UHGV virus genome: UHGV-0061378
DNA length: 40,142 nucleotides
Strand: one strand, 5' to 3'
DNA from: a virus
The notes under the pieces were generated by a model. The model worked only from the letters and a program-made list of their open reading frames with translations. It was not told the origin of the DNA and ran no database searches. This document shows positions 50 to 32,984 of the stretch, in pieces; within the stretch, counting starts at the first letter, position 1; each line of letters begins with the position of its first letter. A program made the position numbers and the translations under genes.

Positions 50-1207
50 ATGCTCACCGTTAAGCAGATTGAAGCAGCAAAGCCGAAAGAAAAACCATAC
101 CGCCTTCTCGATGGTAATGGCCTGTACCTTTATGTCCCTGTATCAGGGAAAAAGGTATGGCAGCTTCGCTACAAGATTGACGGTAAGGAGAAAATCCTGA
201 CTGTCGGAAAATATCCGCTTATGACTTTGCAGGAAGCAAGGGATAAGGCATGGACTGCGAGGAAAGACATCTCGGTTGGCATCGATCCGGTAAAAGCGAA
301 AAAGGCTTCGTCTAACAACAATTCCTTTAGTGCGATTTACAAGGAATGGTACGAACACAAGAAGCAAGTCTGGTCAGTAGGGTATGCGACTGAACTTGCA
401 AAAATGTTTGATGACGACATTTTACCCATCATCGGCGGTCTTGAGATTCAGGATATTGAGCCGATGCAACTGCTGGAAGTAATCCGCAGATTTGAAGATC
501 GCGGTGCAATGGAGCGAGCCAACAAAGCCCGCAGAAGATGCGGCGAGGTTTTCCGTTACGCTATTGTCACTGGTAGGGCTAAATATAACCCGGCACCTGA
601 CCTTGCTGACGCCATGAAAGGATATCGCAAGAAGAACTTCCCGTTTTTACCTGCCGACCAGATCCCGGCATTCAACAAAGCACTGGCAACATTTTCAGGA
701 AGTATCGTATCGCTCATTGCGACCAAAGTTTTACGCTACACAGCCCTAAGAACGAAAGAGCTTCGCTCCATGCAATGGAAGAACGTCGATTTTGAAAACA
801 GGATTATCACTATCGACGCCAGTGTGATGAAGGGACGCAAGATTCATGTTGTCCCGATGTCGGACCAGGTGGTTGAACTTCTCACTACGCTAAGCTCCAT
901 CACTAAACCAGTATCAGAGTTTGTTTTTGCCGGGCGCAACGATAAGAAGAAGCCAATCTGCGAGAACGCGGTATTGCTTGTGATCAAACAAATCGGCTAT
1001 GAGGGTCTGGAAAGCGGTCACGGATTCAGGCATGAATTCAGCACAATTATGAACGAGCACGAATGGCCTGCTGACGCTATTGAAGTGCAACTGGCACATG
1101 CCAACGGCGGATCTGTGCGTGGAATTTACAACCATGCTCAGTATCTCGATAAGCGCAGAGAAATGATGCAGTGGTGGGCGGACTGGCTTGATGAAAAGGT
1201 TGAGTGA
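50..1207 (+). CDS. int: Tyrosine integrase, P4-like family
   Basis: Track ORF 14..1207 starts at GTG; first ATG at 50 gives N-terminus MLTVKQIEAAKPKEKPYRLLDGNGLYLYV, the typical P4-family integrase start. Sits beside the attP core and arm-type repeats. Confidence 0.85.
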   Translation: MLTVKQIEAAKPKEKPYRLLDGNGLYLYVPVSGKKVWQLRYKIDGKEKILTVGKYPLMTLQEARDKAWTARKDISVGIDPVKAKKASSNNNSFSAIYKEWYEHKKQVWSVGYATELAKMFDDDILPIIGGLEIQDIEPMQLLEVIRRFEDRGAMERANKARRRCGEVFRYAIVTGRAKYNPAPDLADAMKGYRKKNFPFLPADQIPAFNKALATFSGSIVSLIATKVLRYTALRTKELRSMQWKNVDFENRIITIDASVMKGRKIHVVPMSDQVVELLTTLSSITKPVSEFVFAGRNDKKKPICENAVLLVIKQIGYEGLESGHGFRHEFSTIMNEHEWPADAIEVQLAHANGGSVRGIYNHAQYLDKRREMMQWWADWLDEKVE

Positions 1208-1224
1208 ACGACATTATGAACAAC

Positions 1225-1265
1225 AGGAGAACACACAAAACCTCGCAAAAATTACAAAGATTTGT
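1225..1265. repeat. 10-bp inverted repeat (AACACACAAA / TTTGTGTGTT) between convergent int and tailspike genes
   Basis: Read directly in the 81-bp int/tailspike intergenic region; possible bidirectional transcription stop, no clean U-tract. Confidence 0.4.
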
Positions 1266-1288
1266 GTGTTAGTACTTATCATTGCGAT

Positions 1289-3235
1289 TTAAAGAATAAT
1301 TCTTTCAACCTTCCAAGTTGCAGATCTACTTCCTGAAATTCCAACTCCATTTGAATCTTTGAGAAGAATTCTAAATGATGTTTCTGTTACCAAATCATAC
1401 GTTACATTTATTGCTGCGCCATCTCCTATCGATATTGAGATAAAATCAGGCACAACTCCAAGTCCGTGAGTTATTATTTGTCCATTTGAATAAACCCCAG
1501 TTCCTATTTTAGTCGTTGCATACCCGGCATTGTTTGCAAGGACAACATTAACCGAATTTGCTCCTAATTTAGCAATCTTCCTATCAGATGAAATCTCTGT
1601 AGATTGTATTGCATTATTTGAAATAACTGCATCTTTTATAGCCCTGAAATCTCCAGGTGTTCCTGATACAGCATTAACAAGTATTGCATACTGCATACTT
1701 CTATCACTTCTTTTATTGCCGAAAGCATTACCGCAAATTGTTGTCCCGGTAAATCCAGATGCTCCCGTGTTATCAAGAAGAATTCCGCACCTATATGTAT
1801 TTGATGTATCAGAAGGCAAACCTATACCTCTTATGGAATTATTGGATACTATATTATTATCTGGCTTGACATTTGCATTATTGCAGTAAATGCGAATTCC
1901 AACATCACAAAATGCATCTAATACATTATCAGATATAACATTACCCGCTCCCCACACATCAATACCCATAAACGAATCAGCACCATCTCCAAAAAATTTA
2001 TTTTGAGTAACTATTGTTCCGCTACCCCTAATCAATATAGCAGGCCTTGGAATGCTTGAAGTCTTTTTGCTATCATTGTAGCCATGATTATCGTTTATAT
2101 GAGATTCCCCCCCCGCACTATCTATGCAGCAATTACACGAATCTATTATATTTTTATTTATCCTTACATAGACAGAATCGTGTTTTATACCTGTAATAAA
2201 ATTTGATATGGAATTTGATACAAAACTAGTTGCCTTACATGGCAATGAAACGCCATGTATAGCGTCCTTAGACGCTCCTATGGCAACAAAATGTATCCCT
2301 GTAACAATTGCTGGGTTCTCATTAGATGATGTGTCACCTATGGTAATAGCAAAAGAATTCTCATCTTCAGGACCATCAATTGTTAATATCGTTTGTGGCG
2401 TATATCCTTGAGATATTTGCGATCCATTTCCTGAACCAAACCCTCTCATACTTACAAAAGATGGGATTCTTAGTTTTTCTGTTACTCTACAGTTGCCCCC
2501 CCAAAAAAATTCCTCTTTAACATGGGCAGCGGCCAGCATGATTGGAATTGTATCATCTTTAACTCCATCAAGCGTCGCTCCATAATTTCTAAGGTCATTG
2601 GTTTCATACCCATTTAAATAACCAATACATCTCCATCCTGTTGAGGTATATCTGGCAAATTTATCATCTGGGGGAACAGTAAAAGGAGGAACTGTCATTT
2701 CTCCTCCAGTTATTTCATTTTCATATACCCAAAACAACCCATCATAATCTTTGATTGCGCATCGGTTGTCACGAATGATATTTTGCTTGTCATAGTTCCC
2801 ACAATATGAAAAACCAGTTGCTAATTTCTGTAGATTTGTTCCTGATGCTGAGTTTATTAATGATGCGCCATTTTCGCTAGTTAATACATTATTTAGAGGG
2901 TCAGGATCATACTTCAGCACATTAGGAAAATAGAACTGCTGCGCACCGTACGCATCATAAACAGCCATAGAATGGCCTTGCACGGTTACGAATTTGGCAA
3001 TCTGTCCGTTATATACCGGATATCCGGCAGCGTTAATGATTATTGGTTGCGAAACAGGAACGTGAGAACCGTCTTCGTTCTCCACATAAACCTGAATCTG
3101 GTTTTCAGGATTTACAGGGTCAGTGTCAATTTTACCGATATAAATTTTGCCATTGGCAACCGCTTTAAAAGAACGCGCCATAGTGAAAAGTTGCGAAGGC
3201 ATCGATACGATCACATTGGCTGTAATGTCTGTCAT
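1289..3235 (-). CDS. Tailspike protein: P22 gp9-type head-binding N-domain fused to a divergent receptor-binding domain
   Basis: 648 aa. First ~110 aa ([46 protein letters not shown]...) match the remembered P22 tailspike N-terminus; the remainder is not P22-like and looks AT-rich by eye. Confidence 0.9.
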
Positions 3236-3292: not shown

Positions 3293-3316
3293 TAAAAAAA
3301 CCCAGCCGAAGCTGGG
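3293..3316 (-). terminator. Rho-independent terminator downstream of ant
   Basis: Minus strand reads CCCAGC-TTCG-GCTGGG followed by TTTTTTTAT. Confidence 0.7.
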
Positions 3317-3335
3317 TCGTTGCGTTGGTTATCTG

Positions 3336-4214
3336 TCAGTAGTTATGTACTGAAGGAGGTAATTCTTTATTCTTAAGTCTCATCCATGCGGAAAGATTCG
3401 TTGGTCCGTCTGGCTCATTAATATCAACATCTCGTGTGTGATTGATTAAAACGTCTCTCGCCATTCCGATAACATACGAGAACTCATGACCGTAGTCGTA
3501 GCATCTGCCGGAATAGTTCGATTGAATTTGTTTTAATGCCGGATACAGTTCGCGGAATAATGCCTGTGAACGGTTAGCATAATCCCATAGCCATACAAGG
3601 CTGTTTGCTTCTTTTTCAGAAAGCTCGTTTGCTTTCTTCTCTTGTTTGCCGACAAACTCGCCTTCAAGCACTACCCTGTGGATGTACTCTACGGCCAGCG
3701 GGATTTGTTCAATTGAAAGTTCATCAATGCTGTCAATACCAAAACGCTGATGAACCATATTGTATGCATCGTCATAGCGAAGTCCTTTCTTTCCTACCAG
3801 CATGTTTACTGCATCGCGTAGCGGCGTTCTTTCCTCAACAGTGGTTTTCTTGCCTTTCACATACTCGCCATGTTTGCGAATTGAAGGTAGAACTTCTGCT
3901 GTTACCCACTTGCGGAATTTGTGCGGGACCGAACCTTTATTGACAGCATCGCGGCAGCGCAGAACCAATGTATACATACCTGATTCGCTAACAATGCTTA
4001 GATTCTGCTCACCACCAAGGGTGTAACTTAAAGTTACTCCCTTTTCATCGTCATCAAGTGCAGTAAGCGCCTTGCGTGAGTTAGTCAGGGTTAAAGCATC
4101 ACAAACATCTTTTGCTACAAACCACGGCTCACCGCATTTGTTGATGACGCGGATTTCACTGTCGCCGAATTTGAAGATGGTGAAATCGTTTTGTGCCTTT
4201 GCTATACTTTTCAT
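3336..4214 (-). CDS. ant: Antirepressor with BRO-N type N-terminal domain
   Basis: Sits in the ant position of the immI region; start at internal ATG 4214 ([11 protein letters not shown]...) with AGGAAA SD, not the track start at 4280. Domain call from memory of BRO-N antirepressors. Confidence 0.75.
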
Positions 4215-4282
4215 GTCAATATTTCCTAATCCGATTTGTTGATACCGAAGCCCTGACTGTTCCCGCAGTTGGGGCTTCAACT

Positions 4283-4444
4283 TTACTCGCCAATGCGCCC
4301 TTCCTTCTTAAAGCTTTCCATTACTCTCTGATAAATCTCAGAGTTAACAGACCGACAATTCTCTTCCGCCACCTTGCGTACCAAATCCAATACTTCTTTA
4401 GGCCACCGCAAATTGAACTGCGGCATCTTGCTCATTCCTTTCAT
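4283..4444 (-). CDS. arc: Arc repressor (ribbon-helix-helix)
   Basis: 53 aa [53 protein letters not shown], near-identical to remembered P22 Arc; GAGGTG SD before ATG 4444. Confidence 0.93.
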
Positions 4445-4460
4445 ATTCACCTCACAATAT

Positions 4461-4477
4461 AGGTCCACCGTGGACCT
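4461..4477. promoter_or_regulatory. Mnt operator (17-bp palindrome AGGTCCACCGTGGACCT)
   Basis: Perfect palindrome in the arc/mnt divergent promoter region; matches the remembered P22 Omnt. Confidence 0.8.
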
Positions 4478-4486
4478 ATTGAGAAT

Positions 4487-4507
4487 ATAGTAGAGTGCTT
4501 CTATCAT
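4487..4507. promoter_or_regulatory. Arc operator (ATAGTAGAGTGCTTCTATCAT)
   Basis: Reverse complement ATGATAGAAGCACTCTACTAT matches the remembered P22 arc operator; lies between arc and mnt. Confidence 0.8.
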
Positions 4508-4534: not shown

Positions 4535-4786
4535 ATGGCTAGAGATGATCCGCACTTTAACTTCCGTATGCCTATGGAAGTAAGGGAGAAATTAAAATTC
4601 AGGGCGGAGGCGAATGGGAGATCAATGAACTCCGAGTTGTTACAAATCGTCCAAGATGCTCTATCAAAACCATCGCCTGTGACTGGATATCGCGACGATG
4701 CAGAACGACTCGCTGATGAGCAGTCCGAACTTGTTAAGAAGATGGTGTTTGATACGCTGAAGGATTTGTACAAAAAACCCACCTGA
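4535..4786 (+). CDS. mnt: Mnt repressor
   Basis: 83 aa MARDDPHFNFRMPMEVREKLKFRAEANGRSMNSELLQIVQDALSKPSP..., near-identical to remembered P22 Mnt. Confidence 0.93.
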   Translation: MARDDPHFNFRMPMEVREKLKFRAEANGRSMNSELLQIVQDALSKPSPVTGYRDDAERLADEQSELVKKMVFDTLKDLYKKPT

Positions 4787-5966: not shown

Positions 5967-6356
5967 GTGAAGCCATTTCTTGCTGCTATGTTCTTATTCA
6001 TATCTTTTGGGGCTACAGCAGAGTGCTGGGTCGTTGGAGATATGCGCGGAATAAGCTATTCAGAACGAAATAATTTCCATCCGGAAGAAGATGGTTTTAG
6101 TGGAACATTCATCATTAAGACAAGCGGTGAAGATGCCAGCATCACATATTCTGGGACAGATGCGGGCGGCATGGCTTACAAAGCATTGTCTAAAAACTCC
6201 ATCATAGGAATCGGCGCGAATGGCGAAACTCAACGCGTTATCGACTCATGGGTAATACATCCTACTGGAACAGTTTTAATGTCAAAAACCATTTCCGGTT
6301 ATGGAAATATGGATTCAACCAAAGCTTTTGTTGGAAAAGTAAAAAGAAAATGTTAG
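5967..6356 (+). CDS. Small secreted/periplasmic protein with cleavable signal peptide (moron)
   Basis: GTG start 5 nt after a strong SD (TAAGGAGG); N-terminus MKPFLAAMFLFISFGATA-ECWVV looks like a Sec signal; opposite strand to the late operon; AT-rich by eye. Confidence 0.65.
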   Translation: MKPFLAAMFLFISFGATAECWVVGDMRGISYSERNNFHPEEDGFSGTFIIKTSGEDASITYSGTDAGGMAYKALSKNSIIGIGANGETQRVIDSWVIHPTGTVLMSKTISGYGNMDSTKAFVGKVKRKC

Positions 6357-20727: not shown

Positions 20728-21213
20728 TTATTTCAGTTCGTTACCAGGCATTTCTTTTAGCTCTTTCAAATGACAACGATTGAGACTAAACCACTCCCCG
20801 TGCGACCTATAGTTGTAATATTTTTGGTGCAATTTGGTTTCAAGCTCTCTATCGGCCGGAATCTTTGCAATTAGATTTAGCTTCCCACCACTCATGCGAG
20901 ATATCTCTGAAATTCGTTTATTAACCCTGCGACTAAACCCTATTTTTGTTAGCCCACTATCTTCAGCATGCAGAACGTACACATATGATTTTTGCGAAGC
21001 ACTGGGTGCGACTTTGTTGTAATTAATCATGTCAAACATGAAGCCTTGCTTTAGCAAAGTTTCAAAAAAGATAGAATTAACACACCCATTCCTTCTCAGA
21101 TCTGCACTTAGCTTGTCAATTTCCTCTATGATGTCGCCAGACCCCTTTCCACTTATAAGAAAATCTTGGTACATGCGACCAATTCTTGAGGTAATTTCAA
21201 CAAAGTTATTCAT
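20728..21213 (-). CDS. T5orf172 / GIY-YIG-like domain protein (moron between lysis and packaging genes)
   Basis: 161 aa; C-terminal half YVYVLHAEDSGLTKIGFSRRVNKRISEIS...HQKYYNYRSHGEWFSL fits the T5orf172 pattern; AT-rich by eye; terminator upstream. Confidence 0.65.
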   Translation of the reverse strand: MNNFVEITSRIGRMYQDFLISGKGSGDIIEEIDKLSADLRRNGCVNSIFFETLLKQGFMFDMINYNKVAPSASQKSYVYVLHAEDSGLTKIGFSRRVNKRISEISRMSGGKLNLIAKIPADRELETKLHQKYYNYRSHGEWFSLNRCHLKELKEMPGNELK

Positions 21214-30371: not shown

Positions 30372-31088
30372 ATGGAAAATAAAAAATCACTGACGACAGA
30401 ACAGCTCGAAGACGCTAAGCGGCTTAAGGCTTTGTATGAGTCAAAAAAGAAAGAATTGGGAATAACCCAATACTCAATCGCTGATGAACTGGGTATCACC
30501 CAAGGAGCGGTAGGGCATTATCTTAATGGCAGAAACGCGCTAAACGTTGAGGTTGCATCTGGTTTTGCACGATTGTTGCAAGTCTCAATTGCTGATTTTA
30601 GCCAGTCAATTGCTGCCAAGGTTGCAGAACAGGCAGAAAGCCTTAAGAGCGATGCCAACGTAAGGTATGCAGGGGAATACAGAGCAGGAAAGAGGTATCC
30701 GGTGTTAAGCAGTATCCAGGCTGGCTCGTGGTGTGAAGCATGCGAACCATACACCATTAAAGACATAGATGTTTGGCTTGAGTCTGACGCGCATATTCAA
30801 GGTAATGCGTTTTGGCTTAAAGTGGAAGGTGATTCAATGACGGCACCGGTTGGGTTAAGCATTCCAGAGGGAACATTCGTTCTTTTCGATACCGGAAGGG
30901 AGGCGATCAACGGCAGCTTGGTCATAGCAAAACTTTCTGACTCTAACGAAGCAACATTCAAGAAGCTGATAATCGACGGCGGAAATAAATACCTCAAGGG
31001 ACTTAATCCTGCATGGCCTCTCGTGCCAATCAATGGAAACTGCAAGATTATAGGCGTTGCAATTGAGACAAAACTAAGGCTGGTTTGA
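30372..31088 (+). CDS. cI: CI repressor (HTH plus LexA-like S24 peptidase domain)
   Basis: 238 aa; N-terminal HTH (…ELGITQYSIADELGITQGAVGHYLNG…) and C-terminal S24 region (…EGDSM…KL…); divergent from cro. Confidence 0.9.
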   Translation: MENKKSLTTEQLEDAKRLKALYESKKKELGITQYSIADELGITQGAVGHYLNGRNALNVEVASGFARLLQVSIADFSQSIAAKVAEQAESLKSDANVRYAGEYRAGKRYPVLSSIQAGSWCEACEPYTIKDIDVWLESDAHIQGNAFWLKVEGDSMTAPVGLSIPEGTFVLFDTGREAINGSLVIAKLSDSNEATFKKLIIDGGNKYLKGLNPAWPLVPINGNCKIIGVAIETKLRLV

Positions 31089-31105
31089 TCACGCAAGGGG
31101 CGATT

Positions 31106-31474
31106 ATGGTTGGAACCGCTATAGCAAGCTTTTTTGGGATGTTGGCAATCTCGACAATTTACGGCTTAGCGCATGCTTTTATTGCGAAATCTCTATCAGA
31201 AAAAATAAGTCAGGCTTGGGCGCATAGATCAGCTCGTTTCATGATTCTAGTGATCATAGCAATACAAGGGATATCTGCATTTATCCTCTATGGTTCAAGC
31301 TTATACCTGTTGTATCAAGGCGCGACATTTACGCCTTACACCAGTGATTACGGAACGCTATACGATGGTAGTGAAGACATCTCTATGGCTTGGATCGTCT
31401 TTGGTTTATCTATGGCCGTGTCTGTTGTAGCAGACATCATTAAGGTAATTCTCGTCTTAACCTTCGCTGACTAA
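31106..31474 (+). CDS. Small polytopic membrane protein downstream of cI (rexAB position)
   Basis: 122 aa from ATG 31106 (AAGGGG SD), 18 nt after the cI stop with no terminator between; 3-4 hydrophobic segments. Confidence 0.6.
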   Translation: MVGTAIASFFGMLAISTIYGLAHAFIAKSLSEKISQAWAHRSARFMILVIIAIQGISAFILYGSSLYLLYQGATFTPYTSDYGTLYDGSEDISMAWIVFGLSMAVSVVADIIKVILVLTFAD

Positions 31475-32049: not shown

Positions 32050-32349
32050 ATGACAGTAGTCATTACATATCTGGCTGACGATAACGCCAGAAATCGCCGC
32101 AGAGCACGCAGACAGGCTCAACGTGAGCAGGCAATGCAAGAGCAGCGACTGGCGCGAAAAATTGCGCTAAAGCTCTCTGGTTGCGTCAGAGCAGACAAAG
32201 CAGCATCACTCGGAAGCCTTCGCTGCAAGAAGGCAGAAGAAGTCGAGCGTAAACAGAACCGTATTTACTACCGCAAGCCACGCAGTGAAATTGGTGTGAC
32301 TTGTGTTGGTCGCCAGAAAATGAAATTAGGCAGCAAACCACTTATTTGA
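32050..32349 (+). CDS. N: Antiterminator N-like protein
   Basis: 99 aa from ATG 32050 (GGAGG SD) with arginine-rich motif DNARNRRRARRQAQREQA near the N-terminus; first gene after pL/nutL. Confidence 0.75.
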   Translation: MTVVITYLADDNARNRRRARRQAQREQAMQEQRLARKIALKLSGCVRADKAASLGSLRCKKAEEVERKQNRIYYRKPRSEIGVTCVGRQKMKLGSKPLI

Positions 32350-32360
32350 GAGGAATTAAT

Positions 32361-32984
32361 ATGTCATCAATCCGCTTAACTACGAGAATGAAAGAGAAAA
32401 TCGCTCGTAACGCTTTAATTAAGTCTGGGGTTTTCACTGAACTTGAAGAAGTAATAAAGTTAAAGAACCAGCTTGCACTTGACGCCAGAGTTATTGCGTT
32501 TGGCGGTAAAAAGAAAACTGAGGAAGTGGATCAGTTATCATCCAAGTTAGTAGCTATAAGTGAAGAACTTGAAAAGATGGGATGTTCATTTTACTCATAC
32601 GATGTTCGTTCTACTTCGATTTATCTGACTGTATCTGGAAGAAGGGTTGGCTGGCATTCATACGGAAAAGACGGCAACGGTGAAGATATATTGCTCCCCA
32701 CCCCAGAAAAAGATAAATGCATGTTTGACGCAGAACACGAAATAACAAAAAGGTTTGATGAAATCTGCGCATTGCAACAAAAACTTGAAGCCAAGAAAAA
32801 GGATATCGAATCAAATGTATTGGCTGCTTTGAACTCAGTCACAACAGTTAAGCGACTTATTGAAGTTTGGCCTGAAAGCAAAGAATTGCTACCAAAAGAA
32901 GCAGATAAAGCAAGTACAGCACTTCCTGCTTTACGGGTAGAAGATTTGAATAAGATGATTGGACTTCCTCCCGAGGCCGCATAG
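32361..32984 (+). CDS. Hypothetical protein (ral/sieB/gene-17 position)
   Basis: 207 aa from ATG 32361 with GAGAGG SD, immediately after N; no recognisable motif. Confidence 0.6.
   Translation: MSSIRLTTRMKEKIARNALIKSGVFTELEEVIKLKNQLALDARVIAFGGKKKTEEVDQLSSKLVAISEELEKMGCSFYSYDVRSTSIYLTVSGRRVGWHSYGKDGNGEDILLPTPEKDKCMFDAEHEITKRFDEICALQQKLEAKKKDIESNVLAALNSVTTVKRLIEVWPESKELLPKEADKASTALPALRVEDLNKMIGLPPEAA

Follow-up and report, generated by a model that had tools for sequence, protein, structure and literature searches.

The exchange of receptor modules at the hinge that follows the head-binding domain is a well-known, textbook route of host-range change in P22-like phages, and a general framework for such exchange among Lederberg-, Justusliebig-, Kaguna- and Kayfunaviruses has already been published (PMC10408124). 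The P22 gp9 and Sf6 gp14 tailspikes are endorhamnosidases; the gene order in P22 is gene 9-gtrC-gtrB-gtrA-attP-int, and that in Sf6 is tailspike-oac-int. We compared these systems with a 40,142-nucleotide stretch of virus genome UHGV-0061378 (referred to here as the window), in which an open reading frame at 1289..3235 on the minus strand encodes a tailspike of 648 residues. The present protein resembles Sf6 gp14 and P22 gp9 in its head-binding domain (nearly identical to that of Sf6 over residues 1-112, and 76% identical to that of P22), in the YDPD hinge, in the location of its gene after ant/immI and beside the int region, and in the overall plan of adaptor, beta-helix and C-terminal domain. 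It differs from both endorhamnosidases in that it has no sequence similarity to them past residues 112-117, and its prophage lacks the gtrABC genes of P22 and the oac gene of Sf6.

The open reading frame encodes the only tailspike of a P22-like (Lederbergvirus-type) prophage at E. coli argW. A Pfam search of the 648-residue protein identified Head_binding PF09008 on residues 1-112 as its sole domain (E=3.2e-66, full profile coverage), and BlastP against P22 gp9 found 85 of 112 residues identical (76%) over the same region, so that the first-pass annotation was correct in assigning the first ~110 residues to the P22 head-binding domain. Beyond residue 112 the BlastP comparison with P22 gp9 gave no significant segment, the next best having an E-value of 0.43. 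Among PDB chains, Sf6 gp14 (7sg7) was almost identical over residues 1-117 (about 93% identity within the head-binding domain), and the P22 chains matched residues 1-114 only. Similarly, the phage records we searched (50,697) matched the tailspike DNA over nucleotides 1-335/337 of the gene only, with 80-97% identity over nucleotides 1-335 to CUS-3, HK620, Sf6 and others; the best matches were CUS-3 (96.7%), HK620 (91%) and Sf6 (88%). The P22-type head-binding (particle-binding) domain occupies 2900..3235 on the minus strand (codons 1-112) with the conserved KYDPD hinge at its end, and it is at the YDPD hinge that similarity to every known tailspike stops. The PF09008 domain, together with a position at the end of a P22-type late/immI region with tail-hub genes, identifies the protein as a Lederbergvirus tailspike. 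Residues 1-112 would act as a conserved adaptor plugging the spike, presumably a trimer, into the gp4/gp10/gp26 tail hub of the same prophage.

The remainder of the prophage is consistent with this placement. An IntS/P4-family tyrosine integrase is encoded at 50..1207 on the plus strand (385 residues by the gene call on the source contig; the mechanical open reading frame starts at 14) and has the Pfam domains Arm-DNA-bind_3, Phage_int_M and Phage_integrase. The exact tailspike protein was found on a 387-kb ENA contig with yfdC, mlaA, fadL, fadI and fadJ beyond the integrase, and the homologous prophages ET245, 20AR0300 and MB06022 have an annotated intS beside tRNA-Arg. Because yfdC, mlaA and fadL lie beyond int, and from the homologous annotated prophages, we concluded that the window represents a prophage integrated at the tRNA-Arg gene argW and that attL lies upstream of int. 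The upstream neighbor of the tailspike gene is that for the antirepressor Ant (3336..4280, minus strand; Bro-N and P22AR_C domains by Pfam), and a terminator scan found a GC-rich hairpin with a T-run between ant and the tailspike start (3299..3318, minus strand), the position of the annotated post-ant terminator in P22 and of the tANT terminator in HK620. Together with arc (4283-4507, minus strand), mnt (4535-4786, plus strand) and a sar RNA antisense to the start of ant (4216-4282, plus strand; Rfam RF00262, 71.6 bits, E=4e-13), ant forms a complete P22-type immI region. Beyond immI the prophage has a full P22-type injection and morphogenesis set, with tail-hub genes (P22_Tail-4, Phage_stabilise and Phage_tail_NK) and gp7, gp20 and gp16, and over large parts of its length the window is 95-97% identical to HK620-like coliphages.

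Three other genes of the prophage drew our attention. A 129-residue open reading frame with an N-terminal signal-like hydrophobic stretch (5967-6356, plus strand) lies between the gp16-like and P63C-domain genes; it belongs to phrog_2651 (unknown function), has no Pfam match, and occupies a moron position in which related prophages have other small genes, e.g., one for a Rap1a/Tai immunity protein. The early region encodes a protein with an Nmad5 (nucleotide-modification-associated) domain (32301-32984, plus strand), and a T5orf172/MUG113-domain protein is encoded between the terminase and lysis genes (20728-21213, minus strand).

The integrase and tailspike genes are convergent, and the 81-nt gap between them (1208..1288) holds no gene; bases 1208-1268 of the gap are common to other IntS prophages. 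The gap itself, our open reading frame and Pfam scans, and the reference arrangements that we checked all bear out the earlier observation that, unlike P22 or Sf6, this prophage has no gtrABC or oac between tailspike and int, and we recognized none elsewhere in the window. In a Kyte-Doolittle scan of open reading frames of at least 60 residues on both strands of the window, three hydrophobic segments were the maximum, reached by two frames. One of the two (1530-1889, plus strand) is antisense to the tailspike, and we rejected it as spurious, as nothing else supports it and its position is within AT-rich coding sequence of the tailspike. The other, of 129 residues (31085-31474, plus strand), has three predicted membrane segments and overlaps the end of the gene for a cI-like repressor (30372-31088); it belongs to phrog_6534, has no Pfam match and is not GtrA, and it is a candidate lysogen-expressed membrane protein, e.g., for exclusion. 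Pfam searches of the candidates, including this three-segment protein, identified no GtrA, GtrB, GtrC or acyltransferase. We also considered and rejected the 81-nt gap as attP. Since attP/attL lies upstream of int in Sf6 and CUS-3, and host genes are found directly beyond int here, the gap is not attP, and int and the tailspike also adjoin once the phage has integrated. The tailspike 3'UTR has, at 1231-1270, an imperfect inverted repeat of about 19 bp that is predicted to fold as a hairpin in the minus-strand RNA (dG -21.6 kcal/mol, z -3.4), while the plus-strand fold is no better than shuffles. This hairpin possibly ends the tailspike late transcript, though it lacks a clean U-tract, making a terminator role uncertain.

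Other E. coli argW prophages vary in the same interval: in ET245 it is a gap of 17 nt, MB06022 has a gtrA remnant of 63 nt there, and 20AR0300 has one small open reading frame. The P22-like argW coliphage Kapi1 also lacks recognizable conversion genes (PMC8787464). The absence of gtrABC and oac is real and not unusual among argW prophages, and the present prophage carries no recognizable receptor-modifying genes. The int-tailspike junction resembles the final outcome of losing, or never acquiring, a conversion cassette.

The two parts of the tailspike gene differ in base composition. GC content is 36.6% in 1289-2899 and 43.5% in 2900-3235, relative to 47.2% for the whole window, and the sliding-window check therefore agrees with the earlier impression that 1289..2900 is more AT-rich than the 5' end of the gene. 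The shift is confined to synonymous sites: GC3 is 0.226 in the receptor-binding part and 0.429 in the head-binding part, whereas GC at codon positions 1 and 2 is equal in the two (0.437 and 0.438). A GC content as low as that of the receptor-binding part occurs in only 0.12% of all 1611-nt windows, and the global GC minimum of the whole stretch (start 1247) overlaps it. We considered whether low GC is a general trait of P22-like receptor modules, and this was only partly true; five other such modules have GC3 values of 0.285-0.418, and the present module is the lowest.

Breakpoints were located by local blastn against the ET245, 20AR0300, MB06022 and CUS-3 loci, which gave similarity from 1 to 1215-1269 and again from 2893-2901 to 3500, and no similarity to these four loci between ~1270 and ~2898. 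As nothing aligned between the flanking matches, we take the block exchanged relative to other IntS-type prophages with different tailspikes to be approximately 1270..2898. The same tailspike is present in two of 5426 complete E. coli genomes, OkiPb01694 and A35, and divergence on the two sides of the hinge was compared with three carrier loci (L001, L002 and L019). In OkiPb01694 the block 1122-2899, made up of the module and its 3' flank, has a single mismatch in 1778 nt (99.94% identity), versus 18 mismatches in the 336 nt of the head-binding region (94.6% identity). The A35 copy has 11 changed positions among the 1611 of the module and 21 among the 336 of the head-binding region, with an identical 3' flank (1122-1288). 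Most of the carrier differences sit in the head-binding domain, which is the opposite of what is expected under whole-gene inheritance. Among the carriers, 12-22 of the tailspike codon differences are synonymous versus 4-7 nonsynonymous, and the tailspike is intact and under constraint. We noted that 15 of the 16 differing tailspike codons in OkiPb01694 fall in the nominally conserved head-binding domain.

The two carriers have other integration sites. The OkiPb01694 prophage lies between ybhC and ybhB (att-lambda) and has a lambda-type int with xis at its far end, and the A35 prophage sits beside torT. The last 86 nt of int (1122..1207, plus strand) nevertheless travel with the module into these prophages with other integrases; this remnant is 100% identical beside the same tailspike in both OkiPb01694 and A35, where it is annotated as a partial CDS (6003-6086 in both L001 and L002). 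Because both keep an IntS remnant, the source of the module with its 3' flank was an IntS-type phage similar to the present one, and the remnant looks like a scar of replacement of the integration module by recombination inside int. The int remnants of the two prophages share the same breakpoint. With the present prophage included, the same module is found in at least three prophage backbones and integration sites. More diverged relatives of the module (~45% identical) are joined to adaptors of the PF18668 (Gp66/TSP1) and PF03906 (T7 fibre) types, and such distant relatives occur on a T7-like contig, on a tape-measure-bearing (siphovirus-like) contig and in the phi92-like phage KKE7M. The lytic-phage relatives have a GC3 of about 0.40, and we rejected them as a recent donor given that value versus 0.226 and an identity of only ~45%.

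Four independent lines, namely the stop in similarity at YDPD, the composition at synonymous sites, the breakpoints and the discordant divergence, support the horizontally swapped receptor module that the first-pass annotation had proposed. Neither similarity to a known tailspike nor composition was uniform along the gene. In the mechanism we propose, everything after the YDPD hinge (neck, beta-helix and C-terminal beta-sandwich) was acquired by recombination from an AT-richer donor, the exchangeable unit is the module plus a short 3' flank, and the module has moved recently between P22-like prophages with different head-binding alleles and integrases.

The acquired receptor-binding and putative depolymerase module spans 1289..2899 on the minus strand (codons 113-648 and the stop). 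Its parts, all on that strand, are a neck (2621-2899; residue 113 to about 205), a right-handed parallel beta-helix (1541-2620; residues about 206-565) and a C-terminal beta-sandwich (1292-1540; residues about 566-648). An AlphaFold2 model of the monomer from a 12-sequence alignment was confident over residues 140-648 and consisted of the neck, a long beta-helix and the C-terminal beta-sandwich; the N-terminal 120 residues were modelled poorly because the alignment was shallow there. The fold match of the model was strong, its closest structural matches being enzymatically active tailspikes and beta-helix glycanases or lyases. Searches of the module sequence against Pfam, PHROGs and the PDB (phmmer and profile) found nothing past the adaptor and a short cap motif, a 13-residue stretch that aligns with the beta-helix cap region, and the module had no sequence match to any characterized enzyme. 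The PDB profile search had no match in the helix, and thus did not reveal homology to the catalytic beta-helix of P22 gp9 or Sf6 gp14. The view in the first-pass annotation that the receptor part is unrelated to P22 holds for sequence, as there is no match past residues 112-117, but not for fold, as the predicted right-handed beta-helix is of the same class as that of other tailspikes.

Homologs to the module are few; a word-indexed search of 5.8 billion proteins found 11, and 13 were recovered when 1.84 billion representatives were searched exhaustively with HMMER, with 91 members in the 90% cluster of the tailspike itself. Two of the relatives (P0008 and P0009) carry PF12708, a Pfam domain of pectate-lyase-superfamily beta-helix depolymerases; the tailspike has no Pfam match outside PF09008. 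Among relatives 32-46% identical, E306, D324, E377, H379, H384, D417, D440 and D511 are invariant, and from the alignment these acidic and histidine residues are candidate active-site residues. By analogy with every characterized tailspike of the same fold, the module would bind the outermost polysaccharide of the host, probably cleaving it in a groove lined by these eight residues, and in this way the virion would reach the outer membrane. We infer both the enzymatic activity and the identity of the catalytic residues.

A candidate receptor came from the polysaccharide loci of the carriers. OkiPb01694 and A35 each have two, located side by side, an O8 wzm/wzt mannan locus and a galF-gnd Wzx/Wzy cluster with the gene order rmlBDAC-wzx-acyltransferase-four glycosyltransferases-wzy and an intact wzy of 401 codons. 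The PGAP annotation gives this wzy 244 residues, relative to the 401 of its open reading frame. Both OkiPb01694 (L007 1-27700) and A35 (L008) have kept their colanic acid genes; wzzB and his flank the O8 wzm/wzt genes, and a decayed group II intron and a copy of ISAs1 come after the galF-gnd rml/Wzx/Wzy cluster. In O8/O9 strains with group 4 capsules, a second, Wzy-made polymer is expected as the outer layer, and the product of the galF-gnd cluster would resemble a group-4 capsule or a second O antigen. The Wzx/Wzy cluster is found in five of the 5426 complete genomes, both tailspike carriers included, and the O8 cluster in 309. OkiPb01694 and A35 are not independent observations, since their O-locus DNA is identical over about 50 kb. 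MHI813, of serotype O8:H19 (PMC3491183), holds the tailspike and the same Wzy, and other tailspike carriers in the 90% cluster are labelled O8:H49. Three published receptor-binding proteins are predicted to be specific for O8, G7C RBP1, MK-13 RBP1 and fGh-Ecl02 RBP1 (PMC10408124 Table S1), and tblastn with the module matched none of them.

The likeliest receptor, as suggested by a few and partly related hosts, is the polysaccharide made by the rare rhamnose-type Wzx/Wzy cluster between galF and gnd in O8-typed strains. We favor this product because the rare cluster is present in both carriers and its Wzy in MHI813, the O8-predicted receptor-binding proteins are not detectably similar to the module, and an outer layer of this kind is expected. 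The same strains could instead be recognized by their O8 polymannan O antigen, which would leave the architecture of the tailspike unchanged; every serotype-labelled carrier is O8 (O8:H49 four times, and MHI813), and both complete-genome carriers have the O8 wzm/wzt cluster. Nevertheless, the tailspike is absent from the remaining 307 complete genomes that have the O8 cluster, versus two positive genomes among the five with the rare cluster, and the probability that both carriers would fall among those five of 309 by chance is ~2e-4, a value uncorrected for shared ancestry that assumes all five to be O8, as the three examined are. With the module also lacking detectable similarity to the published O8-predicted proteins, and a Wzy-made second polymer expected to lie outermost, we regard the polymannan as the less likely receptor, though a live alternative.

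Whichever polysaccharide is bound, the module might serve as an adhesin without catalytic activity, or as a deacetylating spike of the esterase type, and not as a depolymerase that cleaves glycans. We consider this improbable, as its best structural matches are active tailspikes and beta-helix glycanases or lyases, the Asp, Glu and His set along the helix is invariant across relatives with as little as 32% identity (32-46%), and known esterase spikes have an SGNH fold, not a beta-helix. It is less probable still that the prophage is a decaying remnant with a non-functional tailspike, its low GC and missing conversion genes being products of decay. The gtrA remnant in a related prophage does show that deletions occur at the int-tailspike junction; however, the 648-codon reading frame is intact in every full-length copy with mostly synonymous differences, a full P22-type morphogenesis set accompanies the tailspike, the same module persists in at least three prophage backbones and integration sites, and only third codon positions have the low GC. 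Taking the observed domain architecture, mosaic boundaries, composition, distribution and fold class as a whole, the best explanation, and in our judgment a highly probable one, is that of a P22-like prophage tailspike in which a conserved adaptor is joined to a receptor-binding and putative depolymerase module acquired by recombination, with the Wzx/Wzy product as its likeliest receptor. A further reading that we put forward tentatively is that a very small, structurally unsolved depolymerase family has its temperate-phage founder in this module, which would be specific for an untyped second polysaccharide (a Wzx/Wzy product like a group-4 capsule) beside the O8 mannan and would be spread by the prophage among backbones without a receptor-modifying gene. 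If this were true, in silico O-typing from O8 wzm/wzt would not report the second polysaccharide, and superinfection exclusion by the prophage would have to depend on other mechanisms.

The strains open to infection by a phage are determined by its tailspike receptor modules, which also serve as typing and biocontrol reagents. The present case leaves the understanding of P22-like systems unaltered, and provides an exchange that is quantified by its breakpoints, by 99.9% versus 94.6% identity across the hinge, and by a synonymous-only shift in composition. New here is a receptor module that is rare and uncharacterized, whose exchange boundaries are well defined and for which there is a testable candidate receptor, namely a second polysaccharide of O8 E. 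coli.

Relative to other described systems, the only sequence relatives of the module are in the Escherichia phage KKE7M (Justusliebigvirus, phi92-like) and the metagenomic proteins P0002-P0007, which are 43-46% identical over the whole module and share its neck, helix and C-terminal domain, but differ in their adaptors (PF18668 Gp66/TSP1 and PF03906 T7), virion types and GC3 (about 0.40). The solved structures of Det7 gp208, HK620 and CBA120 TSP2 have only 12-16% identity to the tailspike, with no profile-level match over the helix. Kapi1, ET245, 20AR0300 and MB06022 share an IntS-type integrase at argW, the placement of int directly beside the tailspike, head-binding DNA that is 93-98% identical and the lack of gtrABC/oac, but have other receptor modules; Kapi1 has a small open reading frame between tailspike and int and alters the O antigen by an unknown route (PMC8787464). 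CUS-3 differs in having an endosialidase tailspike, with neuO between tailspike and int where nothing is found here, and HK620 in having the wzy-like hkcF just downstream of the tailspike, where there is again no counterpart. Both of these phages, whose tailspike regions have annotated "boundary sequences", are similar to the present prophage in their mosaic tailspikes, with the exchange junction at the end of the head-binding domain.
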